A DNA stretch of 64,000 nt from an uncultured bacterium. GTDB taxonomy: Bacteria; Macinerneyibacteriota; Macinerneyibacteria; Macinerneyibacteriales; Macinerneyibacteriaceae. Every line of letters starts with the position of its first letter. The first letter of the stretch is position 1. Shown here one piece after another: positions 4,026-48,608 of the stretch. Both the position numbers and the translations under genes were made by a program. A model generated the notes under the pieces. It was given only the letters and a program-made list of their open reading frames with translations. It did no database searches and had not been told where the DNA came from. The stretch lies in assembly GCA_964621075.1 (NCBI GenBank), contig CAZUKV010000001.1, positions 24,144 to 88,143 on the forward strand, given 5' to 3'.

Positions 4026-4027
4026 TG

Positions 4028-4297
4028 TTATTTATTTTTCCTTTCAATGTATTTAGCCCAAATCCCCATCTTCTGTAACAAGTTTTTTGTTGTAGTTGTT
4101 GGTTGGGCGCCATTCTCTAACCACTGCATAACTTTCTCTTCATCAATTTCTACTTTTGATGGATTTGCTTTTGGATCATAAAATCCAATTCTTTCAATCA
4201 TTTTACTATCTCTTGGTTTTCTTGAATCAGAAACTACAACACGATAATAAGGTTGTTTCTTTTTCCCTGTTCTTTTCAATCTAATTTTCACTGCCAT
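4028..4297 (-). CDS. rpsP: 30S ribosomal protein S16
   Basis: [30 protein letters not shown] is canonical S16. Confidence 0.9.
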
Positions 4298-8658: not shown

Positions 8659-9792
8659 TTATATTTTATTAATTATCTCTTCAGGCTCTATAACTTCACC
8701 ATCAGCCCTGTTTACACCAACAACCTGACATTTTACAAATCGTTCAACTTCTCTTCTCAGCTGTCCCAGATTCATTTCGGGAACTACAACTTTTTTAACT
8801 TTTTCTCCAAGTTCCTTTATTTTGTTTACAGGCATTGGCCAAACAGTTTTAAGTCTCAACATCCCTACTTTCTCACCATTATTTCTGGCTCTTTTAACAG
8901 CCTGCAAGCCAGCCCTTGCTGCGAATCCAAAAGAAATAATTAATTTATCCATATCATCGGTATAATATTCTTCATATTCTAATATATCATCAAGATTTTC
9001 GCTTATTTTTAATCTTAAATGATCTACGAGTTTTTCCTGAACTTCTCTATCCTGAGTTTTTCTATATCCATTAGGATCATGTGTGGAACCTGTAACAAGT
9101 AACCTTTCTCCATCTCCGAAAGATGGCATGCTGGGAACTCTTTCTAATGGCTCAAATCCTCCAAATGGAGGAGTATCATTTCCTTTTTTCCTATTGTAAA
9201 CTTCAACTTCTTTTTTTACATTAACAACTTCCCTTAAATGACCGGTTGCCTCTTCCAAAAGAACAATAACCGGTGTTCTATATTTTTCAGCTAAATTAAA
9301 AGCTCTTATAGTTTCATAATAGATCTCTTCTACTCCCCAGGGAGATATAGCTATCATTTCATGTTCGCCATGTGTTCCCCATCTGGCTTGCATTAAATCT
9401 CCCTGTGCTGTTCTTGTTGCCTGTCCGGTAGAAGGACCTGTTCTCTGTACATCAACAACTACAGCAGGCGTTTCTGTCATAATACCAAGTCCCAGATTTT
9501 CCATTTTTAGAGACATCCCAGGCCCTGATGTTGCTGTCATGCTTTTTGCTCCTGTCCATGACGCCCCAATAACAGCACCCATAGCTCCTATTTCATCTTC
9601 CATCTGTACAAAAGTTCTATCTAAATCATTAAATCTTTCAACTATTGTTTCCATAATTTCACTTGCGGGAGTAATAGGATATCCTGCAAAAAAAGTACAG
9701 CCAGCTGCAATAGCACCTCTTGCACAGGCTTCATCTCCCTGCATGAAATATTTACCTTCTTTTAATGGTACTTTATTTATTTCTGTTGCCAT
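8659..9792 (-). CDS. 2-oxoacid:ferredoxin oxidoreductase alpha subunit, cluster 1
   Basis: Length and motifs (GYPITPASE, TATSGPG) of the OFOR alpha subunit. Confidence 0.85.
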   Translation of the reverse strand: MATEINKVPLKEGKYFMQGDEACARGAIAAGCTFFAGYPITPASEIMETIVERFNDLDRTFVQMEDEIGAMGAVIGASWTGAKSMTATSGPGMSLKMENLGLGIMTETPAVVVDVQRTGPSTGQATRTAQGDLMQARWGTHGEHEMIAISPWGVEEIYYETIRAFNLAEKYRTPVIVLLEEATGHLREVVNVKKEVEVYNRKKGNDTPPFGGFEPLERVPSMPSFGDGERLLVTGSTHDPNGYRKTQDREVQEKLVDHLRLKISENLDDILEYEEYYTDDMDKLIISFGFAARAGLQAVKRARNNGEKVGMLRLKTVWPMPVNKIKELGEKVKKVVVPEMNLGQLRREVERFVKCQVVGVNRADGEVIEPEEIINKI

Positions 9793-11211: not shown

Positions 11212-12771
11212 TTAACCCTCCTTTTTTTTGGTAAGAGGAGTTACAATAACTATTGATAATATACTCAATACCAGTGCCACGTATACTTTATCAATATTCA
11301 TGCCTATAAAATTTGTTATTGCTTCTTTATTTAATACAAAAATTAAAATTCCTAATGTTGAAACAACCAGGGCTGTAATTGCTGCCTGTGGTGTTACCCA
11401 GGTTCCTTTAATTTTTTTATATCCTAAAACAATCCCTAATATCACGACAATTGCTGCTGCCCCTCTAATTCCATAAGTAATATATGCTGCCTCAAGAATT
11501 CCTCCTCTTATAAAAATTGCCATTGGAATTGAAATAATACCAACTGTAATTGTCATTGCTTTAGAAAAACTCAATAATTTTTTATCAGAAGCATTTTTAT
11601 TTATTAATAAATGATAAAAATCCTTAACAAGAATAGTGCTCACTGCAAACATAACCGGAGCAACCGTTGATAAAATTGCAGCTAATATTCCTGCAGCTGC
11701 TAATCCACTTAACCAATCCGGAAGAAACTCTGCATTCATAAGAAGAAAAGGTAGTGTTTCTTTAGCAGATGTCAATTTCTCTAAATTGCCTATTGTTCCT
11801 GTTCTAACTGCTATTCCAAGGGTTGCAACGATAATTCCAAGTGGTGCTATTAAAAGAGCACTTAACATTGCTCCTCTTTTTGCAGTATTTATATCTTTAG
11901 CCGCAAAAACAGGTTGAATTGAAGCCTGAGAAGCAAAACCAGCAAGAATACCTCCTAATAACCATGCAATCATTTTCCCAAACCCCAGAGAAAAAGGATC
12001 CTTATAACTTTTAATCATTTCGCCTGCTTCTTTAATCGTATTTCCTTCTGCGACAAATTGAGAATTCAAATTTTCAAATAATCCTGAAAATCCTCCTACA
12101 TGATTCAATGTAAGAATAAAGACAACAATAATAGTTGAAAACAGTAAAATAATATGCATCAAATTTGTAAATGCTATTGATTTCATTCCACCCTCATATA
12201 CATAGAAAATAACAAATATACCTGAAACAATAATTGCTATGCTGTAAGGACTAAATAAAATAGATTCAAATCCAAACATGGATGATAACACTCCAGAAAA
12301 ACTTCTCAAAAAGGATCCAAATAATTGAGAAACAAGACTTCCAATTGCCTGTAATTGCAAATATGATAAAATTATAAAAGCAACTACAAATGCAAGGGAA
12401 GCAACTATCCTTACATTTTTATTAAATAATTTTTCTAACATTTCTCCTACTGTGTGAACATTATTTTCTCTATAAATTTTTGCTATTGTTAATCCAAATA
12501 AAAACATCCCCAAAGCTGTAGAAACATTATACCAGAGTGGAAATAATCCAGAATTGAATGCTTTTTCAGAAGTTCCAATTGTACTCATTCCACCAAGCCA
12601 TTCACCTACAACAGTAACAGTTACAAGCAGAACACCCATATTCCTTCCAGCAATTAAGAAATCTGAAGAAGATTCTTTTGCTGCAAACTTTTTTACAATT
12701 TTACCTGCAATAGCTAATAAAACAAAATATCCAATAATCACCAATAATTGCACCCAATGCATAATAATCAA
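11212..12771 (-). CDS. Sodium:solute symporter family (SSF) transporter
   Basis: About 13 transmembrane segments. N-terminal ...FLIAGRNMG... is a typical SSF signature. Confidence 0.7.
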   Translation of the reverse strand: MIIMHWVQLLVIIGYFVLLAIAGKIVKKFAAKESSSDFLIAGRNMGVLLVTVTVVGEWLGGMSTIGTSEKAFNSGLFPLWYNVSTALGMFLFGLTIAKIYRENNVHTVGEMLEKLFNKNVRIVASLAFVVAFIILSYLQLQAIGSLVSQLFGSFLRSFSGVLSSMFGFESILFSPYSIAIIVSGIFVIFYVYEGGMKSIAFTNLMHIILLFSTIIVVFILTLNHVGGFSGLFENLNSQFVAEGNTIKEAGEMIKSYKDPFSLGFGKMIAWLLGGILAGFASQASIQPVFAAKDINTAKRGAMLSALLIAPLGIIVATLGIAVRTGTIGNLEKLTSAKETLPFLLMNAEFLPDWLSGLAAAGILAAILSTVAPVMFAVSTILVKDFYHLLINKNASDKKLLSFSKAMTITVGIISIPMAIFIRGGILEAAYITYGIRGAAAIVVILGIVLGYKKIKGTWVTPQAAITALVVSTLGILIFVLNKEAITNFIGMNIDKVYVALVLSILSIVIVTPLTKKKEG

Positions 12772-28450: not shown

Positions 28451-28490
28451 AGGAAGAAACATAATCTTCCTTTTCTCTTTTTTTTATTCT
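28451..28490 (+). terminator. Rho-independent terminator after rpsT
   Basis: AGGAAGA-aacataa-TCTTCCT hairpin followed by TTTCTCTTTTTTTTATT. Confidence 0.6.
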
Positions 28491-28541: not shown

Positions 28542-29597
28542 TTATTTTCTTTTAGTTATATATTTTAAACCAAGTGTTGCTTCACCGGAGAAATCCATTT
28601 CTCCAGCTTTTTTAACAATATCTGAATACATTTCATTATAAATACTTTTTACAGTTTCTGCTGAATTGTTTGTTCTTGTAGTTTCAAAAATAAAATCCAA
28701 AATTTCATTCATTCCCTCGAGAATTGATTCAGTTTCGAGTCCCTCTACCCACTCGATCTTGTCTGTATTAACTCTATGACTCTGTTTTGAAAAATAAACA
28801 TCTTCCATGTCAGGGAATATAGCTCTCAATTCATCAATTTTATCTTCAATTTCTGAATAGCTAATTTGAATATTTTCATCTGACAATTCCAAATAATCAA
28901 GAAACATATTTATAGCTTCTGTTACCAGCCCTACTGCATTATGAGGTACAGGATATTTTTTCTTTTTTCTTTTAAAAAAGAAATTTAATATTTTTTTTGT
29001 TCCTTTTATTCCTGATTTTTCTATTTTCTCTTTTCTTTTCTGAATCTTTTCTTCTTCACTCATCTTTATATCAATAAGATTAGCTTTTTTATATGAAACA
29101 AGCATCTTGCTTGCTTCAATTCTATCCAATCCACTTTTTTCAATTACTTCATTTACAGTTCTTTTCCCGTTAATCAAGGATAGCAACTTTAAATCTTCAT
29201 TGCTGAGATTGATTTTATCAATATTACTGTCTTCTTCATTTACAAGTTCTAATATGGCATCATAATCTTCTATGGATTTCTTTATTTCAGTTATTTCATC
29301 AACCCGTCTTGCTGCTTCTAATATTAGATTCTGCCAGTCCAGGTTTATTTGTTTAGAAGGCGGTTCATCTCCAACCAAAAATTCAAATTCTCCTTTTTGC
29401 CAGGAAAACATGCTATAAACTGCATTCTCATTCTTAATATCTTCATTCTTTGCATATACAATAGCACCATTATCAAAATATATTTTACCTTTTCTGCCCG
29501 CGTGATTTATCTGCAGACAACCGGATCTTTTTCCCAAACCTAACAACTGGAATAAATCTGCAAGAGAAAAATCTGAGAGATTCCCTTCCAGGGACAT
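28542..29597 (-). CDS. PATAN (DUF4388) domain protein, last gene of the mglA module
   Basis: N-terminal GNLSDFSLADLFQLLGLGKRSGCL matches the PATAN/DUF4388 signature (G-L-x-x-F-x-L-x-D-L-L-Q-L-L). The remainder is unassigned. Confidence 0.6.
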   Translation of the reverse strand: MSLEGNLSDFSLADLFQLLGLGKRSGCLQINHAGRKGKIYFDNGAIVYAKNEDIKNENAVYSMFSWQKGEFEFLVGDEPPSKQINLDWQNLILEAARRVDEITEIKKSIEDYDAILELVNEEDSNIDKINLSNEDLKLLSLINGKRTVNEVIEKSGLDRIEASKMLVSYKKANLIDIKMSEEEKIQKRKEKIEKSGIKGTKKILNFFFKRKKKKYPVPHNAVGLVTEAINMFLDYLELSDENIQISYSEIEDKIDELRAIFPDMEDVYFSKQSHRVNTDKIEWVEGLETESILEGMNEILDFIFETTRTNNSAETVKSIYNEMYSDIVKKAGEMDFSGEATLGLKYITKRK

Positions 29598-29619
29598 AAT
29601 TCCTCCTTAATTTATAATT

Positions 29620-30099
29620 CTAAAGATCTTTTAACAAATTATTTATTTCTTCGCTCAATGTCTTTTTGACATTATTTATTGGCTTTTCTTCAATTTTACT
29701 GATCTGTTTTAATAATGTTTCAAGTTTATCAATAGTTTTTTTAGTTTCTTTTTGAAGTACTCCCAAGACTGTTTTTTCACCAAAAATAGTTACAAGCAGA
29801 TATTTTTCTCCAACCCTATTTATATCTATACTCTCTTTTTTGCCTTTGTGAAACATTACAGTAAACTTATTATCATTCATCATTCTTGCAAGTGCAGCAG
29901 TAGCAGCAAAATGACTTGCACTTAAAGAAGCAAGATCAACAGTATTAATATCACCTGTATATCCTGCTGCGGATATAAGATTTCCATTTATATCCACCAA
30001 AAAACAACATTTAGAGGAAGTTTCCCATATAAGATGTGATAAGATATCTTCTATTTTACCTTTAATCTTTTCATTAATATTCATATTATCTTCCCTCAC
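29620..30099 (-). CDS. Roadblock/LC7 domain protein, MglB paralogue (MglC-like position)
   Basis: Roadblock fold (CFLVDINGNLISAAG...DLASLSASHFAATAALARMM). Overlaps the mglA 3' end by 14 nt. Confidence 0.7.
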   Translation of the reverse strand: MREDNMNINEKIKGKIEDILSHLIWETSSKCCFLVDINGNLISAAGYTGDINTVDLASLSASHFAATAALARMMNDNKFTVMFHKGKKESIDINRVGEKYLLVTIFGEKTVLGVLQKETKKTIDKLETLLKQISKIEEKPINNVKKTLSEEINNLLKDL

Positions 30100-30673
30100 T
30101 TACCGATTTTAAAACCAATTTGCTTATTGCTTTTAAAGTATCAAACACCCCAATACCTTCAATTGCGATTGATTCAAATGAGAGATAATTATCTTTATTT
30201 AATTTTTCATCTAAAGTATCAGCATCCATCACATTAGGCAAATCCATTTTGTTATATTGAAGAACTAAAGGAATACTATCGGGATCTATATTTTGAGATT
30301 TTAAATTAACATTCAAATTTTTATAACTTTCAATGTTATCCTCAAGTCTTTCTTTCTGTGAATCAGCTACAAAAATTATTCCATCTGCACCTTTTAGAAT
30401 CAAACGCCTACTCGCATCATAATGAACCTGACCAGGAACTGTATATAAATGAAATCTTGTTTTAAAGCCCTGCACCTGCCCCAAATTCAATGGCAAAAAA
30501 TCAAAAAATAATGTCCTATCTGTTTCAGTTGCTAAAGATACCAGTTTGCCACGTGCATCTGCATCAATTTGTTTATAAACATATTTAATATTTGTAGTTT
30601 TACCCCCCAGTCCAGGACCATAATAAACTATTTTGCAATTAATTTCTCTTGATGCATAATTTATTAATGACAT
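30086..30673 (-). CDS. mglA: Ras-like small GTPase MglA
   Basis: Near-colinear with Myxococcus MglA as recalled from memory: INCKIVYYGPGLGGKTTN, TETDRTLFFDFLPL, FHLYTVPGQVHYDASR. Confidence 0.85.
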   Translation of the reverse strand: MSLINYASREINCKIVYYGPGLGGKTTNIKYVYKQIDADARGKLVSLATETDRTLFFDFLPLNLGQVQGFKTRFHLYTVPGQVHYDASRRLILKGADGIIFVADSQKERLEDNIESYKNLNVNLKSQNIDPDSIPLVLQYNKMDLPNVMDADTLDEKLNKDNYLSFESIAIEGIGVFDTLKAISKLVLKSVSEGR

Positions 30674-30693
30674 ACACCCTCCTTAAAGGAATT

Positions 30694-31191
30694 CTATTTA
30701 TCTTTAAAAAGATTATCTATTTCATCATCCAAAGATTTTGAAAAAGATTCATCAAATTTTGCTGTACCTTCTGATTTAGATTTTTCACTAAGTTCTTTTA
30801 ATAGTTTAACAAGTTCTTTTCTGCTTTTTTTCATCTCAAGCCGTACCAGCCCTAAAGAGGTTAGATCGGTTTTAAAAACAATAACCATAATAATATTTTG
30901 AGCAACAATAGATATATGTATGCTCTCTGTATCCCCTTCATGAAAAAGAACTGTAAACTCTTCTTCTCCAATTAATTTTGCCAGTTCACTTGTTGCGGCA
31001 AAATTACCCGCTGAAAGAGAAGCAAATGCAGCAGAATCAACTGTTTCCATATCTCCACGCATTCCTATTAATTGTCCACTTTTATCAACAAGAAAAGCAC
31101 ATTCAGCAGTTGACCTTTCAAGGAGATCATCAAGTACTTCATTGATTTGGTTAAACCCATCTTCAGGAATTATTAATCCATCTTTTGACAT
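30694..31191 (-). CDS. mglB: MglB (Roadblock/LC7 GTPase-activating protein of MglA)
   Basis: CAFLVDKSGQLIG...SLSAGNFAATSELAKLIGEEEF...SLGLVRLEMKK and a C-terminal DDEIDNLF tail, as in Myxococcus MglB. Confidence 0.8.
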   Translation of the reverse strand: MSKDGLIIPEDGFNQINEVLDDLLERSTAECAFLVDKSGQLIGMRGDMETVDSAAFASLSAGNFAATSELAKLIGEEEFTVLFHEGDTESIHISIVAQNIIMVIVFKTDLTSLGLVRLEMKKSRKELVKLLKELSEKSKSEGTAKFDESFSKSLDDEIDNLFKDK

Positions 31192-31208
31192 ATAAACCTC
31201 CTAATTAC

Positions 31209-31250
31209 TCTAATTATTATATAATTTAAACCCCTATATGTCAATTAAAA
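31209..31250 (-). promoter_or_regulatory. Near-consensus sigma70 promoter for the mglB-mglA-mglB2-PATAN operon (TTGACA-N17-TATAAT on the minus strand)
   Basis: The minus strand reads TTGACA (plus 31244-31239), tataggggtttaaatta, TATAAT (plus 31221-31216), about 25 nt upstream of the mglB ATG at 31191. Confidence 0.55.
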
Positions 31251-31350: not shown

Positions 31351-32319
31351 TTAATTGACCTTATTTTCTTTTTTTATATTGTATTTTTTTATTAATTTTG
31401 ATAAATATGAAGGCTCAATTTCCATCTCTTCGGCTGTCTTTTTTTGATTCCAGTTATTTTTATTTAATTTACTCAACAAGTATTCTTTTCTAAATTTTTC
31501 TACTGCTTTTTTATATGACATATTTATAAATTTAGTTTTTTCTTCTTCTGTATATATATTTAAATTTCTCACATGTGGTTTAACATCGCCAATAGTTATT
31601 TCTTTACTATTTTTTAAAAATATACTAATTCTTTTTAAATTATTTATTAGTTCTCTAACATTTCCATACCAGGGTTGTTCTTTAAGAAAATTATATACCT
31701 TTTTATCAATTTCAGGTAGAAAACCAAATTCTTTTTTAAAAAAATAATCAACTAATTCGGGAATATCTTTTTTTCTTTCCCTGAGAGGTGGAATAAATAT
31801 TGAAATAACATTCAACCTATAGAACAAATCTTCTCTGAATTTCTTTTTTCTTATCATTTTTTTTAAATCACGATTTGTTGAGGTAATAAACCTAACATCT
31901 ATATCAATCTGTTTATTTCCTCCCAATCTATGAAAAGATTTTTCCTGTATTACTCTTAACAATTTTACCTGTAAATTTAATGATAACTCTCCAATTTCAT
32001 CAAGGAAAAGACTCCCATTGTTTGCAGCTTCCAGTTTGCCAGGTTTTTGCTTTTTAGCTCCTGTAAAGGCTCCTTGTTCATAACCAAATAATTCTGATTC
32101 CATTAAATTAGCGGGAATTGCTCCTGCATTAATTGGCACGAATTTTTCATTTTTCCTTCTACTCAAATAATGAATCCAATGCGCTACTACCTCTTTACCA
32201 ACACCTGTTTCGCCCTGAATTAGAACTGTAACATCATATTTTGAAATTTTAGCAATCTTCTTTCTAATTTCTTTAACCGAAGTAGAAACTCCACTCAAAG
32301 GAATAGGTTCTTTTTTCAT
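31351..32319 (-). CDS. Sigma54-dependent transcriptional activator (AAA+ plus C-terminal HTH) lacking an N-terminal regulatory domain (PspF/HrpR-like layout)
   Basis: Walker A GETGVGKE, the sigma54-contact GAFTGA motif (ESELFGYEQGAFTGA), an arginine finger, and a Fis-type HTH at the C-terminus. The protein begins directly with the AAA+ domain. Confidence 0.8.
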   Translation of the reverse strand: MKKEPIPLSGVSTSVKEIRKKIAKISKYDVTVLIQGETGVGKEVVAHWIHYLSRRKNEKFVPINAGAIPANLMESELFGYEQGAFTGAKKQKPGKLEAANNGSLFLDEIGELSLNLQVKLLRVIQEKSFHRLGGNKQIDIDVRFITSTNRDLKKMIRKKKFREDLFYRLNVISIFIPPLRERKKDIPELVDYFFKKEFGFLPEIDKKVYNFLKEQPWYGNVRELINNLKRISIFLKNSKEITIGDVKPHVRNLNIYTEEEKTKFINMSYKKAVEKFRKEYLLSKLNKNNWNQKKTAEEMEIEPSYLSKLIKKYNIKKENKVN

Positions 32320-32370: not shown

Positions 32371-33366
32371 TTATATTATTTTTGAAATATCACTTTCAAG
32401 AATTTTTGTTAGCAGGTCAATTGTATTTTGCACATCATCTTTTGATAATACTTCTGAAACAGAATGAATATATCTTGTTGGTATGGATAAAACACCAGCT
32501 AAAATACCGGATTTTGTAAGATTAATAGCACCAGCATCTGTACCACCGTACTGTAAAACTTCTAATTGATATTTTATTTTATTTTTTTCTGCTACTTTAA
32601 TAAAAAAATCTTTAACCTTCTTGGGAACAAGAACAGATCTATCTTTTACTTTTATAGCAACTCCATTCCTCAATTTCATGGGCATTTTCTTTGCTTCAGG
32701 GGTATCTGCACTTCCAGTAACATCTATTGCTATACCCAGATCAGGATCAAGATTATATGCTGATGCTTTTGCTCCTCTTAAACCTACTTCTTCCTGGGAT
32801 GTAAAAACAAAATATATTTCGTTATCCGTTTTTTTAAGCTTCTCTGCTGCTTTTATAGCTACAGCACAACCCACCCTATCATCCATGGATTTAGCTACAT
32901 AAAGATCATTTAATTCATCAAAATTATTAACAAAAGCACCAAAAAATCCTTCTCCAAGCATTTCTCTTGCTTCTTTTTTACTTTTAGCACCAATATCAAT
33001 ATATAATTTATCAAACTCAATTTCAGATAATTTTTTTACCGGCTCAATTCCTACAACTCCTTTAACTCCATTTTCAAAAATTACCCTCTGATAAATACAT
33101 CTTACAGGGGATACTCCTCCAACAGGAGAAAAACGCAAAAATCCATTTTTTGTTACATGTGTAGTTATTATACCAATCTCATCCATATGAGAAGCTACCA
33201 TTATTTTTGGACCTTTACCTTTTTTAATACAAATTAGATTCCCCATGGAGTCTTCTTTTATTTCATCTACGTGATTTTCCATTTTTTTTGTTATAATTTC
33301 TCTAATTTTATCCTCCCGGCCTGAAGGACCAAATGTTTCAACAACTTCTTTAATTAGCTTTTTCAT
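32371..33366 (-). CDS. M42 family (TET/FrvX-like) aminopeptidase, paralogue 3
   Basis: M42 metal ligands (HMDEIG...DDR...EEVG). Third of three tandem paralogues. Confidence 0.8.
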   Translation of the reverse strand: MKKLIKEVVETFGPSGREDKIREIITKKMENHVDEIKEDSMGNLICIKKGKGPKIMVASHMDEIGIITTHVTKNGFLRFSPVGGVSPVRCIYQRVIFENGVKGVVGIEPVKKLSEIEFDKLYIDIGAKSKKEAREMLGEGFFGAFVNNFDELNDLYVAKSMDDRVGCAVAIKAAEKLKKTDNEIYFVFTSQEEVGLRGAKASAYNLDPDLGIAIDVTGSADTPEAKKMPMKLRNGVAIKVKDRSVLVPKKVKDFFIKVAEKNKIKYQLEVLQYGGTDAGAINLTKSGILAGVLSIPTRYIHSVSEVLSKDDVQNTIDLLTKILESDISKII

Positions 33367-34403
33367 AAGACCTCCTTAAAATTTTTCAATCCATTTATTG
33401 CTAAATTTGCTGTATTTTTGTAATCTTCAAGAGCCATAATACCTCTTGGGGCATGAATATATCTAACCGGAGTAGATATTACAATAGATGGGATTCCTCC
33501 TTTAGTATGGATAACACCTATATCGGTCCCACCAGTTACACTCCTCTTATATTGATATGGAATATTATTTTTTTCAGCTGTTCTTTCAAAATGCTCTTTT
33601 AACTTTCTAAAGCCAATGGTTGTTCTATCCATAACTGTTATTGAAGGCCCCTTTCTCATTTGAGTTGATGGTGATTGATCCCTTTTTTCAGGATCAGGAA
33701 CATCCCCAGCAGTAGTTCCCTCAAAAGCAATAACATAATCTGGTTTTTCCCTTTCGGCTAAAACCGAAGCTCCTCTAAGCCCAACTTCTTCCTGCACTGT
33801 AAAAACTGCAATAATATCTACAGGATAATGCTGATCATCTTCAAGCCCCCTCAATATCTCCGTTATAATTCCACAACCAGCACGATCATCGAAAGCTTTA
33901 CCGAAAAGTACATCCTCCTGCATCTCAAATTTAGTATTAAAGGTTGCATAATCCCCTTTACTTATGTAGGATTTTGCTTTTTTTTGATTTTTAGCTCCAA
34001 TATCTATATACAATTTCTGCATGGGAATAGGTTTTTTCCATTCACTCCTGTTCTGCAGATGAATTGGTTTGGCTCCAAGTACTCCTGGAATTTTATCCTT
34101 CCCAATTAAAACTCTTTTGGATACCAGGATTCTTGGATCTATCCCCCCCACTCTTCTAAAATGTAAAAATCCATTTTTGGTAACACCATCTATCATAAAG
34201 CCTATTTCATCCATATGTGCAATGACCATAACTTTTTTTGCATTTTTTTCGCCACACTTTTTATATCCATAGAGATTTCCCATGAAATCTGTTTTTATGC
34301 TATCAACATTATCTTTTAGTGATTCTTTTATTACTTCTCTAATCTCATCTTCATATCCTGAAACACCAAATGCATTTGAATATTTTTCTAATAGATCAAT
34401 CAA
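33363..34403 (-). CDS. M42 family aminopeptidase, paralogue 2
   Basis: HMDEIGFMI, DDRAGC and QEEVGLRG motifs. 4-nt overlaps with its neighbours. Confidence 0.8.
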   Translation of the reverse strand: MIDLLEKYSNAFGVSGYEDEIREVIKESLKDNVDSIKTDFMGNLYGYKKCGEKNAKKVMVIAHMDEIGFMIDGVTKNGFLHFRRVGGIDPRILVSKRVLIGKDKIPGVLGAKPIHLQNRSEWKKPIPMQKLYIDIGAKNQKKAKSYISKGDYATFNTKFEMQEDVLFGKAFDDRAGCGIITEILRGLEDDQHYPVDIIAVFTVQEEVGLRGASVLAEREKPDYVIAFEGTTAGDVPDPEKRDQSPSTQMRKGPSITVMDRTTIGFRKLKEHFERTAEKNNIPYQYKRSVTGGTDIGVIHTKGGIPSIVISTPVRYIHAPRGIMALEDYKNTANLAINGLKNFKEVL

Positions 34404-35443
34404 TGCTCTACCTCCTTATAATATTTGTCCACTTCAGATACAAATAGGGCTAATATCTTCGCCATTCTCTTTATATCCTTTAAGTTAAGAGTTTCAACGG
34501 TAGTATGCATGTATCTTAATGGAATCCCCATCTGTATAACGGGAACACCTTCTCCTGAAATTTGAAATGAATAAGCATCAGTTCCACCGGGTCTTGGTAT
34601 AAAAGTTTCCTGATATTTTATTTCCCAGTTTTCTGCCAGTTTTTTTATCTTATCTGTTAATCCAGGATGGAAGTTAGGTCCCATTGCGATGGTCCCTCCA
34701 TTCCCAAGTTTAACAACTTCATATTTATTTGATCCTGGTGAAAATCCAAATGTTACATCTATAACAACTCCAACATTTGGTTTAATTTCATAAGCCGACA
34801 TTGCTGCACCTCTAACACCAACTTCCTCCTGACATGTTCCAACCATATAAACATCCCAGTTGTGTTTTAAATTACTCAACACTTTCAGTACTTCTATTAA
34901 TACTAAAACACCCGCTCTATTATCCATGGCCTGTGAAGCATAACAATCATCTTTTAATTTAACACAGCTTGTATCAAAAATTATTGAATCCCCGATGGAT
35001 ACATTCTCTTTTATAAAATCTGCCTTGAGTCCTGTATCAATATATAAATCATCCAGAGGTGTAACTTTCTTTCTATCTTTAGGTTTTTGCAAATGAGGAG
35101 GAACACTTCCAATGATTCCTTTGATCTTCTCTTTCCCCTGAATTTCTACATTTTGCCCCAGCAAAACTCTGGGATCATGTCCCCCAATTGGAACAAAATA
35201 AATAAATCCATTTTTATCAATTTTATTTACCATTAAACCAATTTGATCAAGATGAGATGCAAACATGATTTTTCCGTTAGATTTTGCACCCTTTTTAATT
35301 CCATACACATTATTAAACTTGTCAATATATGCTTCATCAGAATATTGTGAAAAAAATTTTCTTATGACCTCCGCAGCTTCAAATTCATCACCTGAAATGC
35401 CAGATGACTCAGTTAACGATCTTAATATCTCTCTTGTGCTCAA
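34400..35443 (-). CDS. M42 family aminopeptidase, paralogue 1
   Basis: HLDQIGLMV, DNRAG and QEEVGVRG motifs. Confidence 0.8.
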   Translation of the reverse strand: MSTREILRSLTESSGISGDEFEAAEVIRKFFSQYSDEAYIDKFNNVYGIKKGAKSNGKIMFASHLDQIGLMVNKIDKNGFIYFVPIGGHDPRVLLGQNVEIQGKEKIKGIIGSVPPHLQKPKDRKKVTPLDDLYIDTGLKADFIKENVSIGDSIIFDTSCVKLKDDCYASQAMDNRAGVLVLIEVLKVLSNLKHNWDVYMVGTCQEEVGVRGAAMSAYEIKPNVGVVIDVTFGFSPGSNKYEVVKLGNGGTIAMGPNFHPGLTDKIKKLAENWEIKYQETFIPRPGGTDAYSFQISGEGVPVIQMGIPLRYMHTTVETLNLKDIKRMAKILALFVSEVDKYYKEVEH

Positions 35444-35473: not shown

Positions 35474-35501
35474 TTGACACTTAATATATTTTATTTATAA
35501 T
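35474..35501 (+). promoter_or_regulatory. Putative sigma70 promoter of the TPR gene (TTGACA-N16-TATAAT)
   Basis: TTGACA at 35474-35479 and TATAAT at 35496-35501. GGGGAGG RBS precedes the ATG at 35551. The -35 context AACTTGACACTTAAT also occurs in the 61-bp repeat. Confidence 0.45.
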
Positions 35502-35550: not shown

Positions 35551-36486
35551 ATGTTAAAAAATTTTTGGGTTATAGTTATAATATTTACACTCACTTTTGC
35601 TGCAGTAGCTAATGATGCATCAAAACTATTTAATGAAGGAAAAAAATTGTTTGAACAAAAAAAATATCAGGAAGCTGCTAATAAATTTGTAAAAGCTTCT
35701 TTAGCTGATAAGAAACACGTAAAATCACGGATAGCACTTGCAAAAAGTTATATGGCAATGAATAAGTTTCAGAAAGCAGTTGCACCTTTAAAAGAAATTA
35801 TAAATATCGAACCTAACAACGAAACTGCTCTTGAATTACTGATTCAAACTTACTACAATTTGAAAAATTATACAGAAGTTGTTAATTATGGAAAAAAATA
35901 TAAACAGATTGCTAAAAACCCAACAAATACTGCATATTATCTTCTGGGAAATAGCTATTACAATTTAAAATCCTGGGCACAATCTTTAAATGCTTATAAA
36001 AAAGCTGTATCATTAGATGGCAAGGATTACAAGTCTTTATATAAAATAGGAAAAATTAATTATATGGCTAAAAAATATCCTAAAGCTTTAGAATATTTTG
36101 AAAAATCAGGAAAAATAAACAGCAATTATATTTATACCTTTTACTACAAAGGACTTGCTTACTATAAACAAAAAAATTATTCAGAGGCAGCTAAAGCTTT
36201 TGAACAGACAACAAAAATCAAACCTAATTTCACCAAAGGATATTACTTTCTAATGATAACAAATATTAAAAGAGAAAATTATCAGGATACTGTAAAATAT
36301 GGAACACAGTTATTAAAATATCAAAAAAATGCTAAGAACTACTATTATATTGGAATTGCTTATGACAAATTGAATCAGCCTAAAACAGCTTATAATTATT
36401 TCAATAAAGGGGCTGCTTATTCCGGTAAATTTGCTGAAAGATGCGCAAAATACGCTAAATATTTAAAAAGTTCTAAACTTAAGTAA
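35551..36486 (+). CDS. Secreted TPR-repeat protein
   Basis: Signal peptide plus about 8 TPR-like repeats (recurrent A-x-x-Y/F...G-x-Y...A periodicity). Confidence 0.6.
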   Translation: MLKNFWVIVIIFTLTFAAVANDASKLFNEGKKLFEQKKYQEAANKFVKASLADKKHVKSRIALAKSYMAMNKFQKAVAPLKEIINIEPNNETALELLIQTYYNLKNYTEVVNYGKKYKQIAKNPTNTAYYLLGNSYYNLKSWAQSLNAYKKAVSLDGKDYKSLYKIGKINYMAKKYPKALEYFEKSGKINSNYIYTFYYKGLAYYKQKNYSEAAKAFEQTTKIKPNFTKGYYFLMITNIKRENYQDTVKYGTQLLKYQKNAKNYYYIGIAYDKLNQPKTAYNYFNKGAAYSGKFAERCAKYAKYLKSSKLK

Positions 36487-39830: not shown

Positions 39831-41519
39831 TTAATTAATTTTAATTGACAATAACGTCATGTCATCATCACGTGGAGTTTCTTTTGCAAATTTTTGCAAG
39901 TTTTTTAAACTATTTTTAACTATCTGTGTTGAATTTCTTTTTTTAGATTTATAGATATTATTTAACAATCTTTTCTCTCCATACTCTTCATTTGATTCAT
40001 TCATTCGTTCAACTACTCCATCCGTGTACATGAAAAATAAATCCCCTTTATCAAAATCAATGGTTCTTATTTCCAAAGATTTCTTAAAATCGTTTCCCCC
40101 ACTCAAATTCAAACCAATACCTCTGCTCTTAACATATTTAACTTCATCCATACTGGAATTATAATATATTGGTTCATTATGGCCACATCTTATCCATTTA
40201 AATTTCTTCTTTTTAATATCTAATATTCCAATAATTGCAGTAACAAAGAGAGATCTTTCCTTGGTTGTTCTTAAATAATTATTGATTGATAAAACTATAT
40301 CCATTAAATTTTCATTTTTGGAAAATGTTGAATTTAAAAATCCTTTCAATTCACTTACTATTAATGCTGAAGGTAAACCCTTACCACTAATATCACCAAT
40401 TATCACACCCAATTTATTTTTGTTCTTAAATTTAAGAAGATCATAATAATCTCCGCCAACCTCTCTTGCGGCTAAATATGCTGCTTTAATATCAATATTT
40501 TCAATAGGATAATGTCTTTTAGGAAGCAACTTCATTTGAATTCTTTTAGCAATATCTAAATCTCTCTTTAACTTTTCTTTTTCAAGTGTGTCTGAAATAT
40601 TTTGAAAAGATATCAAAGCACTAATAAGTGATTTCCTTTTTTTATCATCATAAAATTTTTGTAAACTTTCCTCCATTAAAACAAATGGAACAATATTAAA
40701 TCTTATATATTTTTTATTATACCAGAATTGAACAACCTGTGATTCAAAATTCTTGAAAGCTTTTTTTAAAGCTCCCTGCATTATTTTTAATTGTTTTTTT
40801 GATAAATATTTTTTTATATCAATTAAATATTCATTTCTGTGTTCACAATCTTTCTTGTTACAGTAAAAACATAACCCCATTCTTGAACAAACCATTGAAC
40901 TTTTAGCTGGCATATCAAGCAATTTTCTTCCTGAAGAATTAACATTCGCAAGCAATTTTTCATCTACTACCATTAATCCAAAAGGAGTTTCTTCATAAAT
41001 AGCTGAACTTATATTTACATAAGATTTCAGTTCTTTAATTGCCTGAAATCTTATTAAATATTGATTTAACAATAACCCCATTAAAACAATTTTTTCTTCA
41101 CCAATAGCATTTTTCGTATTGAAATTAATATTTATTAAATCCTGTACTTCTGTAAAAACTTTTCTATTTCCTATCCCGGGTTCAATTTTTAATATAGCTT
41201 TCAATGGAATAAAAATCGAAGTATCAGCATTCAATTTTTGATATAATTCTTTACATTGTTTATCTTTACTGCAGTTTAAAGAATAAAAGATTTCTTTGCT
41301 GGAAACATAAGTATTTATGTATTTTTCCATCCACTTTTCAATTTCAAAATCATCTTTTTTGATACCATAAGAAAGACATTTGCTATGATCCATATCAAAT
41401 AATATCATTGAATCAATATGAAAAATTTTTTTTAAAACTTCATACACATCCTTAAAATAATAATATGCTTCATCATTATAAACAATTTTAAATCTTGAAA
41501 AAAACTCAAGTTTCTTCAT
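39831..41519 (-). CDS. PP2C-family (SpoIIE/RsbU-like) Ser/Thr phosphatase with an N-terminal GAF-like sensor region and a Cys/His cluster
   Basis: C-terminal PP2C motifs EVGGDYYD, GDISGKG and YTDGVVE. The N-terminal roughly 330 aa includes CSRMGLCFYCNKKDCEH. Confidence 0.7.
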   Translation of the reverse strand: MKKLEFFSRFKIVYNDEAYYYFKDVYEVLKKIFHIDSMILFDMDHSKCLSYGIKKDDFEIEKWMEKYINTYVSSKEIFYSLNCSKDKQCKELYQKLNADTSIFIPLKAILKIEPGIGNRKVFTEVQDLININFNTKNAIGEEKIVLMGLLLNQYLIRFQAIKELKSYVNISSAIYEETPFGLMVVDEKLLANVNSSGRKLLDMPAKSSMVCSRMGLCFYCNKKDCEHRNEYLIDIKKYLSKKQLKIMQGALKKAFKNFESQVVQFWYNKKYIRFNIVPFVLMEESLQKFYDDKKRKSLISALISFQNISDTLEKEKLKRDLDIAKRIQMKLLPKRHYPIENIDIKAAYLAAREVGGDYYDLLKFKNKNKLGVIIGDISGKGLPSALIVSELKGFLNSTFSKNENLMDIVLSINNYLRTTKERSLFVTAIIGILDIKKKKFKWIRCGHNEPIYYNSSMDEVKYVKSRGIGLNLSGGNDFKKSLEIRTIDFDKGDLFFMYTDGVVERMNESNEEYGEKRLLNNIYKSKKRNSTQIVKNSLKNLQKFAKETPRDDDMTLLSIKIN

Positions 41520-41977
41520 TAAGAATCCTTCAAGGTTTCTTTGAAAAATTCTCTAATTCTATTATCCGCTAATCTTAACCGTCCTATCATTTCATAGAGA
41601 AATGATTTATAAATTTTATATTCAATTTCTTTATTTTCTTTTATAATCCTGTTAAAGTCAGATTTAAGTAGAACTAAAACTTCTACATCTGTAACAGCAA
41701 TAGCTGATGCGAATCTTTTAGAATCCTTGTTTTCTAAAACTCCTACCTCCCCAAAAAAATCACCTCTGTGAAGATTTAATACATTTTGCTTTTTGTCTTC
41801 TTTAACATTTTTGTATATTTCTACATCTCCTTTATCAATAAAAAATATTGCATCAATACTATCTCCTTCTTCAAATATCAATGTGTCTTTAGCAATTTTT
41901 TTTAAAAATATTCTTTCTTTAACAATATCCACCTCTTTTTCATTTAAATCAGAAAAAAGATAATAATCTCTAATCAT
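41519..41977 (-). CDS. Single-domain cyclic-nucleotide-binding (CAP effector domain) protein
   Basis: cNMP-binding signature FGEVGVL...RFASAIA. No DNA-binding domain. Confidence 0.7.
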   Translation of the reverse strand: MIRDYYLFSDLNEKEVDIVKERIFLKKIAKDTLIFEEGDSIDAIFFIDKGDVEIYKNVKEDKKQNVLNLHRGDFFGEVGVLENKDSKRFASAIAVTDVEVLVLLKSDFNRIIKENKEIEYKIYKSFLYEMIGRLRLADNRIREFFKETLKDS

Positions 41978-41978
41978 A

Positions 41979-42443
41979 TCAACCTTCCATACCCATTAAA
42001 TAAAAAGAATTTAACTTGCTGCTTGTATCTTTAATTCGCAAATTTATTTTTTTTACAATATTTTTTAAAATAATGTTTGAATATTCAGATTTTTTATCTA
42101 TTAATTTTTTAAAATTTCTTTCTTTAATTTTTAATAAAATTGCACCTTTTCTTGCTTTTGCAGTTGCACTTCTTGTCCCCTTATCAAGCACGGACATCTC
42201 TCCAAAAAAATCACTCTTTTTCAGTACAGCGATTCCTTCCTGTCCTATGGAATCTATCTCTAAAATTATACTTACAATCCCATCTCCTATTAGATAAAGA
42301 CTATCTCCATATGAACCTTCTTTAAATAAAATCTCATCTTCCTCAAAATTTAATTTTTGAAAATATTCAATTATCTTGGGCAAATAAGAAATCGGAACAT
42401 TTTTGAAAAGAGAATTTTGTTTTAATATTTGAATTTTTTCCAT
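41979..42443 (-). CDS. Single-domain cyclic-nucleotide-binding protein (paralogue)
   Basis: FGEMSVLDKGTRSATAKA cNMP-binding signature. Confidence 0.7.
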   Translation of the reverse strand: MEKIQILKQNSLFKNVPISYLPKIIEYFQKLNFEEDEILFKEGSYGDSLYLIGDGIVSIILEIDSIGQEGIAVLKKSDFFGEMSVLDKGTRSATAKARKGAILLKIKERNFKKLIDKKSEYSNIILKNIVKKINLRIKDTSSKLNSFYLMGMEG

Positions 42444-47362: not shown

Positions 47363-48608
47363 AAATAGTTCTTATTATCTGTTTTAAATTATATTTTAAT
47401 ACATCATAAGAAAAATATTTTTTACCAATCCTGTAATTATTTTCAACCATCTTTTTTCTGTAATTTTTATCTTCTAAAACCTTTTTTACTTTTTCAACAT
47501 TTTTATCCGTCAGATAATCATTCATTGAAATTGTGTTAAATCCCTTGGGTTCAATATCCTTTATATATATACTGTATCGATTAACAAGTATTGGTTTTTT
47601 GAACAATATTGCTTCTAAAAAAGCATTTCCAAAACCTTCAAAAGATGAAGGATAGGTAACAAAATCAGCATGAGGATAAACATCCCATAGAGTATATATT
47701 CTTTCCCAATTTTTTCTATACTTGTTTGGTTTATGAAGTTTGTTATTAATATAATAAACATCAATACCTTCCCTTTTTGCATAATCAATTATCCAGTTAT
47801 AATAATCCAAACCTTCATCTGAAGAGGAATGTGTAATCACCAGTTTAATCTTATCATTATCCAATCTTCGAACAAGATCAATTGAGTGTTCTATTCCTTT
47901 ACGAGCCACAATTCTTGTTGGTTGTAAAAAAATAATATCATCATCTTTAAAATCAAAATCTTTTTTAAAATTGGCTCTTTTTTCTTTATCAATATTAATC
48001 TCTCTATCAAAATTTATAACATTAGGAATAATTTTAGAAGCTATCCCTCTTCTGGCAGCAAGCTGCTGCTGGGCGATAGAATTAATAACTACATGATGAA
48101 TAAAAGGGAGATTTGGAGGAAATGACATTGATAGATAATCCTGGAAAGCATTAATTAGATAACGCCTTCTCTCCCAGGCAAAATCGTGATGGTGCCCTAT
48201 TGTTGGAATTCCTCTTTCAATAATAACTTCTGTTAACGCTAACCCCAGAGGTATATTCATTGGAATACTCAGAGCATTTTCCACAATAACTAAATCAATT
48301 TTATACTTATCCAAAAAAATATTTAATCTAATTTTTAATAATTCTTTTATCTCATCTATTTTTTTTGTCATTTCAGGAGGTCTAATTTTAGTTGACTGTA
48401 ATTTATCATTAATACTTTTTATTTCAGGATGCTTAAAAAAAGCTTTTTCACATAAATAGCTTTTTGATGAAGGCTTTTCCAGCTCTCCTGCAAACCAGTA
48501 TATCCTATGCCCGAACTGTTTTAAAACATCAGCCCATTTATCAGCCTCAAGTGAAACACCATCAAGTCCTGCAAATCGCGTACCAATAAAACCAATATTT
48601 AATTCCAA
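47355..48608 (-). CDS. GT4-type glycosyltransferase (GT-B fold)
   Basis: C-terminal GT4 hallmark EGFGNAFLEA (E-x7-E region) and the N-terminal domain of GT-B glycosyltransferases. Confidence 0.6.
   Translation of the reverse strand: MELNIGFIGTRFAGLDGVSLEADKWADVLKQFGHRIYWFAGELEKPSSKSYLCEKAFFKHPEIKSINDKLQSTKIRPPEMTKKIDEIKELLKIRLNIFLDKYKIDLVIVENALSIPMNIPLGLALTEVIIERGIPTIGHHHDFAWERRRYLINAFQDYLSMSFPPNLPFIHHVVINSIAQQQLAARRGIASKIIPNVINFDREINIDKEKRANFKKDFDFKDDDIIFLQPTRIVARKGIEHSIDLVRRLDNDKIKLVITHSSSDEGLDYYNWIIDYAKREGIDVYYINNKLHKPNKYRKNWERIYTLWDVYPHADFVTYPSSFEGFGNAFLEAILFKKPILVNRYSIYIKDIEPKGFNTISMNDYLTDKNVEKVKKVLEDKNYRKKMVENNYRIGKKYFSYDVLKYNLKQIIRTIFG

Follow-up and report, generated by a model that had tools for sequence, protein, structure and literature searches.

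An MglA GTPase operon with two MglB-type Roadblock genes and a PATAN gene in the candidate phylum Mcinerneyibacteriota

The 64-kb stretch of DNA analyzed here (the window) derives from an uncultured member of the candidate phylum Mcinerneyibacteriota. On its minus strand, at positions 28542-31244, a sigma70 promoter is followed by mglB1, mglA, mglB2, a gene for a PATAN (DUF4388) protein, and a hairpin terminator. This locus raises the question of which cellular output an MglA GTPase with two Roadblock proteins and a PATAN partner may serve. A preliminary description had recognized a complete MglA module under the control of a consensus sigma70 promoter, in which MglB is joined by another Roadblock paralogue and by a protein with a PATAN domain. 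Its four open reading frames were all found on the minus strand at the positions assigned to them, and both family matches and individual residues bear the module out.

The operon and its conservation among relatives

The sigma70-type promoter (31216..31244, minus strand) is composed of TTGACA at 31244-31239, a 17-nt spacer, and TATAAT at 31221-31216, with 12/12 matches to the consensus. Its -10 hexamer lies 24 nt from the mglB1 ATG, in agreement with the initial placement of a consensus promoter some 25 nt 5' of mglB. Two perfect TTGACA-N17-TATAAT sites were observed in the 64 kb, as compared to 0.17 expected, and TTGACA-N16/17-TATAAT or TATACT was present 52-58 nt 5' of the mglB1 ATG in 10/10 orthologous loci examined. 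No -24/-12 element was found 5' of mglB1, nor was there, within the cassette, an internal promoter of a quality matching the site at 31216-31244. The Shine-Dalgarno sequence of mglB1, read as AGGAGG (31197..31202, minus strand), corresponds to GGAGG or GGGAGG in the orthologues. The promoter is kept in the orthologous loci despite the divergence of the sequence around it. At the other end of the cassette, a hairpin (28451..28471), called as a terminator-like site on each of the two strands, is located 70 nt 3' of the PATAN gene stop codon and is common to this gene and the convergent rpsT. The intergenic distances are 20 nt (mglB1/mglA), 1 nt (mglA/mglB2), and 22 nt (mglB2/PATAN gene). Because of these short gaps, the single perfect promoter, strong and kept in 10 orthologous loci, and the terminator, the region is, as judged from its sequence, a single transcription unit.

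The same four-gene order was observed in 19 further loci, corresponding to every relative found (7 GTDB species representatives, 3 contigs, and 9 metagenome contigs); conservation in relatives had been proposed at the outset as a test of the module. Since this order persists between differing flanking genes, even where identity is down to 41% in the PATAN protein and 59% in MglB2, the cassette can be seen, at the level of gene order, to behave as an evolutionary unit. The preliminary description considered the setting unusual, as the cassette lies next to a sigma54 activator and M42 peptidases rather than a motility locus. This adjacency is real, but it is shared only by the closest relatives (L001-L006 and L093) and by L010, where a 2.9-kb gap parts these genes from the cassette, and they are absent at L009, L011-L015, L088, and L090. 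Given the varying flanks, the sigma54 activator and the M42 peptidases are unrelated neighbors, so that little can be read into the contrast with a motility locus. The four-gene arrangement itself is also less unusual than initially thought. Both MglA/MglB adjoining PATAN genes and the coupling of a group-1 MglA with two MglB genes have been described (PMC4316618; bioRxiv 10.1101/2021.06.11.447907), and the gene association is known from comparative genomics (Makarova 2006; Wuichet 2014).

MglA and its two MglB-type proteins

The mglA gene (30086..30673, minus strand) encodes a group-1-type MglA small GTPase of 195 amino acids (E=7e-83 against M. xanthus MglA). Residues 1-194 align without gaps to residues 1-194 of the M. 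xanthus protein at 63% identity, which confirms the near-colinearity noted previously, and identities among orthologues in the phylum are 78-91%. The P-loop GxxxxGK[ST] is present as G19-P-G-L-G-G-K25-T26-T27 and the guanine-specificity motif NKxD as N141-K142-M-D144; the residues kept are G19, G21, K25, T26, T27, R53, T54, T78, G81, Q82, and N141-K142-x-D144. Among these, the arginine finger R53 and the catalytic glutamine Q82 occupy the M. xanthus positions in the gap-free alignment, so that the MglA-specific intrinsic Arg/Gln features, named earlier as a further test, were both found. In the motif LYTVPGQV, T78 stands in place of the Asp of DxxGQ, as in group-1 MglA. This group-1 MglA has its own arginine finger and catalytic glutamine, and the region as a whole would encode a self-contained nucleotide switch. 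The mglA gene is coupled to mglB on both sides, with mglB1 ending 20 nt before it and mglB2 beginning 1 nt after it.

The upstream gene, mglB1 (30694..31191, minus strand), encodes an MglB-type Roadblock/LC7 protein of 165 amino acids with the C-terminal helix motif DDEIDNLFKD (Robl_LC7 E=9.5e-13; 48 bits against PF03259, cut-off 23). Residues 6-164 match M. xanthus MglB (6izw_B, E=1.9e-36, 45% identity), which upholds its initial assignment as a bona fide MglB with the tail DDEIDNLF; the corresponding M. xanthus sequence is DDDIDNLF, and ExEIDxLF is invariant in 10 orthologues. In M. xanthus numbering, MglB1 possesses S37, A64, E68, and N98, and S37, N/S98, and E68 are found in all orthologues, whereas N37 and R98, which contact Switch I, are absent, as is a small residue at the position of G68. 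The sole MglB of the Chloroflexia modules discussed below is of this same type (S37/E68/Q98). The N37/R98/G68 pattern is therefore not universal for the MglB family, and the residue pattern of MglB1 alone is no proof of divided labor. MglB1 is probably the ancestral partner of MglA, the same type occurring alone in the three-gene Chloroflexia modules.

The second Roadblock gene, mglB2 (29620..30084, minus strand), encodes an MglB-type paralogue of 154 amino acids with the tail EEINNLLKDL (Robl_LC7 E=1.1e-7; 31.9 bits against PF03259, cut-off 23). Its start is the ATG at 30084, located 1 nt past the mglA TAA, which gives the 154 amino acids seen in every orthologue, and its ribosome-binding site GAGGGA sits within the last mglA codons. 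The 14-nt overlap with the mglA stop reported initially rests on a GTG start and is removed by the conserved ATG. The suggested analogy with MglC was not sustained either. MglB2 matched MglB, with the alignment reaching into the tail, at 1e-23 as a single sequence and 1e-26 as a family profile, but neither search retrieved MglC at E<=10. The orphan MglB clade to which MglC belongs is characterized by a D-G signature (D26-G27), whereas MglA-coupled MglB has D-x-x-G (McLoon 2016); MglB2 carries D-I-N-G, which is the D-x-N-G signature of the coupled form. An MglC-like identity was rejected on the basis of the matches to MglB and none to MglC, this signature, the residues N37, A64/A68, and K/R98, and the C-terminal helix motif. 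Without exception, 10 orthologues have N37, A64, A68, and K/R98, and the tail TLxxEIxxLLKD is invariant across the family (T142, L143, E146, I147, L150, L151, K152, D153), in which LL replaces LF. The Ala/Ala interface pair A64/A68 presumably corresponds to A68/A72 of Thermus. Both paralogues remained below the cut-off of 200 for the NCBIfam equivalog NF052242 of Thermus-type MglB (MglB1, 80.1 bits; MglB2, 73.4 bits), a narrow model, so that this shortfall excludes only equivalence to the Thermus protein. MglB2 homologues were found solely within the four-gene cassette, and the protein is thus best viewed as a probable paralogue restricted to the Mcinerneyibacteriota that would also act on MglA.

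In M. xanthus MglB, GAP activity involves N37 and R98 of protomer 2, and nucleotide exchange requires no more of protomer 1 than its C-terminal helix (PMC11016934). MglB2 has kept the residues for Switch I contact and GTPase activation of the Myxococcus complex, N37 and K/R98, together with the small interface residues A64 and A68, and the C-terminal helix motif that drives allosteric exchange in Myxococcus is present in MglB1 as well as MglB2. Because the contact residues in MglB2 and the helix motif in both proteins are kept, both probably bind MglA; from the same residues we infer their GAP and GEF roles. They may form two homodimers that differ in activity or location or, alternatively, an MglB1/MglB2 heterodimer with divided labor. 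A related case is that of the group-1 MglA systems with two mglB genes (Wuichet & Sogaard-Andersen 2014; McLoon 2016), which likewise have one mglA flanked by two Roadblock genes, with one Roadblock copy in the clade co-evolving with MglA. Of the MglA-coupled sequences within the MglC (orphan) clade, 7/9 represent two mglB genes beside one mglA, the second being MglC-type (McLoon 2016), whereas in the present operon the second copy has lost neither the signature of coupled MglB nor the C-terminal helix.

The PATAN protein and comparison with known modules

The last gene (28542-29597, minus strand) encodes a protein of 351 amino acids in which DUF4388 was recognized at residues 4-101 (E=3.2e-29), so that a PATAN protein does close the operon. 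The PATAN domain proper (amino acids 1-108; 29274..29597, minus strand) scored 101.9 bits against PF14332, cut-off 25, and was modeled with a pLDDT of 73-89. The remaining 240 amino acids, previously left unassigned and proposed as one effector, resolve into three parts on the minus strand: a predicted winged-helix-like domain (amino acids 112-178; 29064..29264; pLDDT 51-69), net acidic with a charge of -5 to 0 in all orthologues; a disordered linker (amino acids 179-215; 28953..29063; pLDDT <50) that ends in FFFKRKKKKY; and a strongly acidic, lineage-restricted C-terminal helical domain of 136 amino acids (216-351; 28545..28952), predicted to be confidently folded. The hydrophobic-polybasic motif of the linker is conserved, with a net charge of +4 to +11 in all orthologues, and may mediate binding to a membrane or a partner. 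The ~55-residue alpha-helical (alpha-clip) insertion of P0010 and P0013 is absent from this PATAN family, and no Response_reg (REC) match was found in the protein, the model showing the winged helix and the helical domain instead.

An N-terminal PATAN/DUF4388 domain is also present in the cyanobacterial PATAN-REC regulators PixG, PixE, LsiR, and PatA, but the protein of this operon differs by its lack of a receiver domain and of the alpha-helical insertion and by its other C-terminal domains. Since there is no receiver domain, its input cannot be phosphorylation, and the adjacent small GTPase takes the place of REC. In Synechocystis, PATAN is an output domain and interacts with PilB1 and PilC of the pilus motor (bioRxiv 10.1101/2021.06.11.447907), and in M. 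xanthus the MglA effector SgmX and PATAN proteins occur together. The fourth protein is most likely an MglA-coupled adaptor or effector, which would relay the GTP state of MglA to a target located at the membrane or at the pole of the cell.

Among the closest counterparts of the operon are the mglB-mglA-PATAN modules of Chloroflexia (7 loci: L037, L040-L044, and L057). These share the gene order, an MglB1-type partner (S37/E68; tail ExxIDxLFKD), a PATAN plus winged-helix part that is 28-33% identical, and an embedding between housekeeping genes. However, they have no second MglB, identity in MglA is no more than 54-57%, and the acidic helical domain is replaced by a lamin-tail domain that is either part of the PATAN protein or follows it. 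The M. xanthus module (MglA, MglB, MglC, RomR/RomX, and RomY) has the same mglB-mglA order and a further Roadblock paralogue, but the latter is MglC-type, whereas that of the operon is MglB-type and encoded inside it, and the PATAN protein is an integral fourth gene here. No RomR-like receiver-domain gene was found in the 64-kb window. Thermus thermophilus MglA/MglB (3T12, 1J3W) form a corresponding GTPase/GAP pair, matched at E=6.6e-69 by MglA and at 1e-8 to 1e-12 by both MglB paralogues, but include a single MglB, with no PATAN gene in the operon.

Possible outputs and meaning of the operon

A Pfam search of all ORFs of the window retrieved no pilus, gliding, or flagellar family, in line with the earlier impression that no pili or gliding genes are visible there. 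Likewise, type IV pilus, gliding, or flagellar genes were not found within 8-10 kb of about 100 related loci; pilus genes were searched for in the window and in these loci by tblastn with E. coli HofB, HofC, PpdD, and YggR and by a prepilin motif scan. As a whole, the locus is best explained, with a probability of about 60%, by a one-operon MglA switch with two MglB-type regulators and a PATAN adaptor or effector that probably acts on a pilus-like target. By analogy with the cyanobacterial PATAN regulators and with the MglA proteins of Myxococcus, Thermus, and Bdellovibrio, we infer a type IV pilus-like machine as the probable target.

Eukaryotic Roadblock proteins (LAMTOR) function as heterodimers, and the MglB2 family profile weakly matches LAMTOR2. 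It is a real possibility, if short of even odds, that MglB1 and MglB2 are an obligate heterodimer in which the asymmetry of the Myxococcus MglB homodimer is fixed genetically and the roles are split between the paralogues. In such a pair, MglB2 would be the protomer that contacts Switch I and supports GAP activity, and allosteric nucleotide exchange would depend on the C-terminal helix and the N-terminal strand of MglB1. The invariant N37, K/R98, and A68 of MglB2 are consistent with this proposal, as are the invariable S37, N/S98, and E68 of MglB1, whose tail (ExEIDxLF) is closer to that of Myxococcus, the position of both genes on either side of mglA with mglB2 translationally coupled to it, and the division of GAP (N37, R98) and exchange (C-terminal helix) roles between the M. 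xanthus protomers (PMC11016934). However, the MglB1 type is competent alone, since it is the only MglB of the Chloroflexia modules, and the C-terminal motif of MglB2 is invariant too, which is unexpected if a single tail is used.

As for the output, the module may steer a non-motility process, such as the placement at the pole of a complex for secretion, adhesion, division, or the envelope, with the lineage-restricted acidic domain at the C-terminus of the PATAN protein as a specific adaptor. No motility genes were seen near the cassette in the 19 loci, and what follows PATAN and the winged helix varies between lineages (helical here, lamin-tail in Chloroflexia), which suggests lineage-specific outputs. 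In addition, Synechocystis PATAN regulators reach the membrane independently of PilB1 or PilC (bioRxiv 10.1101/2021.06.11.447907), implying other PATAN partners. We nevertheless regard such an output as rather unlikely. To our knowledge, all experimentally studied MglA proteins (Myxococcus, Thermus, and Bdellovibrio) and all studied PATAN regulators act on type IV pili or gliding, and the absence of pilus genes from the neighborhood says little, because mglBA of M. xanthus also sits outside any pilus locus. A long shot is the notion of a split MglB (MglB2 for GAP, MglB1 for exchange) with a PATAN protein that is a new class of direct MglA-GTP effector, directing a non-motility polar process through its linker and acidic domain. 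It is very unlikely that MglA regulates gene expression through the PATAN/winged-helix protein as a transcription factor that binds DNA: a receiver-like/wHTH partner was proposed for group-3 MglA (Wuichet 2014, PMC4316618), but the winged helix is net acidic in all orthologues and its pLDDT is low (51-69). Scarcely credible is the view of the PATAN gene as a mere syntenic neighbor with no functional tie to MglA/MglB. No MglA lies within 8 kb of the nearest PATAN homologues outside the phylum, which are 35-39% identical (WOR-3, Stahlbacteria, and TA06), so that PATAN proteins are not always in need of an adjacent MglA. In the cassette, however, the spacing is 22 nt with no comparable internal promoter, and the order is invariant in 19 loci with changing flanks. 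Moreover, the adjacency arose independently in Chloroflexia, in Desulfatiglandales, where divergent mglBA adjoins a PATAN gene, and in Leptolinea, where a PATAN gene is followed by a distant MglA-like GTPase, and the MglA-PATAN linkage recurs in the literature (PMC4316618; bioRxiv 10.1101/2021.06.11.447907).

The operon is a clean new variant of an MglA-PATAN association that was itself previously known, a functional link having been predicted from gene context since 2006 (Makarova 2006). This link is found here in its most compact form, as four small soluble proteins encoded by one operon, with RomR, Frz, and other Myxococcus-specific layers not visible, and is therefore convenient for in vitro reconstitution. 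The operon is suited to asking whether PATAN is an MglA effector, what a second true MglB adds, and whether bacterial Roadblock GAPs form heterodimers as in eukaryotes. Should the split-MglB notion with a direct PATAN effector hold, it would be the first minimal operon-encoded unit of GTPase, heterodimeric Roadblock regulator, and effector in bacteria, and would closely parallel the Rag-Ragulator logic of eukaryotes. For the organisms concerned, the MglA switch forms part of the core equipment of the uncultured candidate phylum Mcinerneyibacteriota.

Layout, promoter and conservation of the operon

The cassette comprises four ORFs separated by narrow gaps on the minus strand (31244-28451). These are mglB1 (30694-31191; 165 aa), mglA (30086-30673; 195 aa, identified by MglA alignment), mglB2 (start ATG at 30084; 154 aa), and the PATAN gene (28542-29597; 351 aa), whose product contains a PATAN/DUF4388 domain at residues 4-101 (101.9 bits); both MglB-type products possess a Roadblock/LC7 domain. 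A TTGACA-N17-TATAAT promoter (31244-31216, minus strand) is located 24 nt ahead of the mglB1 ATG, with an AGGAGG ribosome-binding site read from the sequence in between, and a hairpin terminator (28471-28451, both strands) is common to the PATAN gene and the convergent rpsT. This layout shows four genes between a single promoter and a single terminator, and the four-gene MglA module with a sigma70 promoter proposed in the preliminary description was recovered in its ORFs, domains, and promoter sequence. The 14-nt overlap between mglA and the third gene claimed there was not retained; ATG 30084 is favored by the gene callers applied to public contigs, a GAGGGA site, and all 154-aa orthologs. 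This start yields the junction TAA-T-ATG, implying translational coupling of mglA and mglB2.

Perfect TTGACA/TATAAT sites were observed twice in the 64-kb window, compared to 0.17 expected. The other site (TTGACA-N16-TATAAT, 35474-35501, plus strand) lies about 50 nt 5' of a gene for a TPR-repeat protein (35551-36486), divergent from the M42 peptidase genes. The cassette promoter stands out as a phylogenetic footprint: at 10 of the 10 loci examined, the surroundings have diverged but TTGACA-N16/17-TATAAT or TATACT is kept 52-58 nt 5' of the mglB1 ATG. A sigma54 -24/-12 element was sought 5' of mglB1 and was absent, and window-wide counts were at chance level. The window's closest approach to a sigma54 -24/-12 site (TGGTACGCGATTTGCA, 48570-48585, minus strand, 1 mismatch) falls where a cluster of glycosyltransferase genes begins.

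Several metagenome assemblies and MAG GCA_035312085.1 contain an identical contig; the source metagenomes are of hypersaline or oil-reservoir type, and the GC content of the window (~28%) is in keeping with Mcinerneyibacteriota. Further MAGs with the cassette are Ca. Mcinerneyibacterium aminivorans VSIX01, CAZMFS01, CAZGIO01, JAFGWL01, DSCS01, CAZIJP01, and CAYRFE01. Scanning the PATAN protein alignment against one genome per GTDB species identified seven full-length relatives (41-71% identity), two of which are deposited under the name Mcinerneyibacteriota or Ca. Mcinerneyibacterium aminivorans. The order mglB1-mglA-mglB2-PATAN was detected by tblastn in all seven, with identities of 78-91% for MglA, 62-82% for MglB1, and 59-84% for MglB2. 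Identical gene order in three further contigs and, via an MglB2 alignment, in nine metagenome contigs bears out the earlier expectation that this order is conserved in relatives. Upstream neighbors vary by locus (PHP phosphoesterase, Maf, or sigma54 activator), and those downstream are mostly rpsT and rpsF-ssb-rpsR-rplI-dnaB, the exception being locus L090, which has AdoHcyase and PilZ protein genes. The sigma54 activator and M42 peptidases, to which the preliminary description had attached significance, are shared only by the closest relatives (L001-L006, L093) and by L010, in which 2.9 kb separates them from the cassette; with mglB1 lacking a -24/-12 element, this neighborhood does not appear meaningful. 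Given its conserved order, promoter footprint, and changing flanks, the cassette is a conserved operon of Mcinerneyibacteriota, and its neighbors in the window are incidental.

The sigma54 activator (31351-32319, minus strand; 322 aa) has an AAA+ domain from residue 10 onward, is devoid of an N-terminal sensory or receiver domain (PspF-like), and follows three tandem M42 aminopeptidase paralogs (32371-35443, minus strand). Ribosomal protein L9 (25993-26697, minus strand) is extended at its C terminus by ~80 aa of Glu/Lys-rich low-complexity sequence, resulting in a total of 225-234 aa; its length is 219-228 aa among near-identical contigs and the usual 150 aa in more distant relatives (L088). 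A signaling cluster (39831-42443, minus strand) encodes two tandem cyclic-nucleotide-binding proteins followed by a SpoIIE-type phosphatase (562 aa), and a GAF-GGDEF diguanylate cyclase is encoded at 55685-57085 (plus strand); for neither was a link to the MglA operon established.

MglA and the two Roadblock proteins

The cassette MglA aligns gap-free with M. xanthus MglA, residues 1-194 on 1-194 (E=7e-83), and also matches Thermus MglA (E=6.6e-69). It is 63% identical to the Myxococcus protein and retains the P-loop, R53, T54, T78, G81-Q82, and NKxD. By every sequence criterion tested it is classed as a group-1 MglA, and its predicted catalytic apparatus is complete.

MglB1 matched the solved M. 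xanthus MglB over residues 6-164 (E=1.9e-36), its tail reading DDEIDNLF versus DDDIDNLF. As a single sequence, MglB2 matched MglB structures at 1e-23, and its family profile retrieved M. xanthus MglB (1e-26, with the alignment reaching into the C-terminal tail), Thermus MglB (4e-10), and LAMTOR2 (2e-3); MglC did not match this profile even at E<=10. Pairwise identities are 45% for MglB1 and M. xanthus MglB, 35% for MglB2 and M. xanthus MglB, and 42% for MglB1 and MglB2. Where a known group-1 system has two coupled mglB genes, the second of them belongs to the MglC clade (McLoon et al., PMC4719450), which is characterized by a D-G signature, whereas coupled MglB proteins have D-x-x-G (PMC4719450). 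MglB2 possesses D-I-N-G and, because this is the coupled-MglB type and not D-G, is assigned as a true MglB paralog; the idea that the second Roadblock protein is an MglC analog was consequently abandoned. Searching 5.8 billion proteins by word index, together with a metagenome scan, located homologs of MglB2 only within the four-gene cassette, and both MglB1 and MglB2 were shown to be under purifying selection.

In the asymmetric MglB dimer of Myxococcus, protomer 2 touches Switch I via N37 and R98, contributing to GAP activity (Chakraborty et al., PMC11016934), and nucleotide exchange is driven only by the C-terminal helix of protomer 1 (PMC11016934). In M. xanthus numbering, the invariant residues among 10 orthologs are N37, A64, A68, and K/R98 in MglB2 and S37, A64, E68, and N/S98 in MglB1. 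This division, with N37/A68/K-R98 in one paralog and S37/E68/N-S98 in the other, suggests that the two proteins may split the labor as a B1/B2 heterodimer. However, the sole MglB of the three-gene Chloroflexia modules carries the MglB1 pattern (S37/E68/Q98), indicating that the MglB1 type works alone, and the MglB2 tail is invariant as well (TLxxEIxxLLKD). Judged by these residues, two homodimers or one heterodimer of MglB1 and MglB2 are possible.

The PATAN protein and its association with small GTPases

The PATAN protein was analyzed using a family-based AlphaFold model (mean pLDDT 72). Its PATAN domain (aa 1-108) is without the alpha-helical insertion of PatA-type proteins, as seen in the family comparison and the model, and is followed in the model by a three-helix plus wing unit (aa 112-178; pLDDT 51-69), a disordered linker (aa 179-215) that in the orthologs has a conserved hydrophobic-polybasic end (FFFKRKKKKY, net charge +4 to +11), and a helical domain (aa 216-351). 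The winged helix is acidic, with a net charge of -5 to 0, which argues against DNA binding and for protein binding. A Foldseek search of the PDB with the full model gave no match below E=0.3, and querying 1.84 billion representatives with the C-terminal domain (phmmer) returned only its own family and two repetitive proteins. PATAN plus winged helix is the part conserved widely: the 214-aa proteins of WOR-3, Stahlbacteria, and TA06 (35-39% identity, MglA not nearby) consist of nothing else, and in Chloroflexia it is the N-terminal part of the protein, to which a lamin-tail domain is fused (633 aa) unless that domain comes from the following gene. Within the cassette, the PATAN protein was shown to be always co-inherited with MglA, MglB1, and MglB2.

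In the 79 loci that best match the cassette PATAN protein, a PATAN gene is found beside a small GTPase gene at 7 Mcinerneyibacteriota and 7 Chloroflexia loci (the latter mglB-mglA-PATAN), beside divergent mglBA at one Desulfatiglandales locus, and ahead of an MglA-like GTPase gene (26-28% identity) at several Leptolinea loci. At Leptolinea loci L045, L052, L054, L056, L058, and L059 (~8850-9307), the GTPase gene is within ~130 nt of the PATAN gene, and MglB was not detected there at E<1e-5. These adjacencies agree with earlier comparative genomics: the MglB-PATAN context is credited to Makarova et al. 2006 (in PMC4316618), MglA/MglB are regularly encoded near PATAN proteins (Synechocystis study, bioRxiv 10.1101/2021.06.11.447907), and two uncharacterized PATAN proteins of M. 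xanthus co-occur with the MglA effector SgmX (PMC11580455).

In Chloroflexia, the mglB-mglA-PATAN module of L040 (8001-9902) and L042 (3973-5839) is inserted between purM and purH. An MglA-PATAN fusion ORF considered for Chloroflexia locus L044 was ruled out, as the translation has one stop within mglA and another between the genes; the former, in mglA at 3659-4243, is in frame at the expected ETDR motif (SIAT*TERT), reflecting a pseudogene or an assembly error. L039 (6281-12077), from the MAG CAZIJP01 that is also the source of L014, adds another PATAN locus from a relative in Mcinerneyibacteriota; it encodes a TPR protein, a 340-aa PATAN protein (46% identity across residues 1-126), a 553-aa protein without Pfam match, and a 402-aa PATAN protein. 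The surroundings of L039 and of L031, a WOR-3 PATAN homolog, contain housekeeping, TPR, and unknown genes and no motility genes.

Possible target and relation to known systems

In the proposed mechanism, MglB1 and MglB2 would govern the switching of MglA between GTP and GDP states. The PATAN protein would read or localize the MglA state, coupling it to a membrane-proximal target; binding may occur through the PATAN and winged-helix part and membrane contact through the polybasic motif. By analogy, this target would be a type IV pilus-like motor. A T2SS-E/PilT-type ATPase, a PilC-type platform protein, and a prepilin were absent from the window, from the 8-10-kb flanks of related loci, and from 314 kb of Mcinerneyibacteriota DNA, in agreement with the earlier observation that no pilus genes are visible. 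Searches of the window and all loci by tblastn with the E. coli pilus-type proteins HofB, HofC, PpdD, and YggR and a prepilin motif scan of the 314 kb were equally negative, and no accessible description of motility was found in the literature on Ca. Mcinerneyibacterium. At L090, the PilZ-domain protein encoded two genes 3' of the cassette (12138-12524, minus strand) has the only c-di-GMP/pilus-associated domain near any cassette copy.

The cassette would work like the MglA/MglB switch of Myxococcus and Thermus. In contrast to those systems, it has a second paralog of MglB type, not MglC type, inside the operon, as well as an integral PATAN/winged-helix protein without receiver domain that ends in a lineage-restricted C-terminal domain. 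The arrangement had been considered unusual, but genome surveys had already recorded both PATAN neighbors and the coupling of MglA to two MglB genes; new is the variant of these associations in a candidate phylum outside the sampling of those surveys. The cassette provides a compact and tractable way into the predicted MglA-PATAN connection and an entry to possible heterodimeric Roadblock regulators in bacteria.
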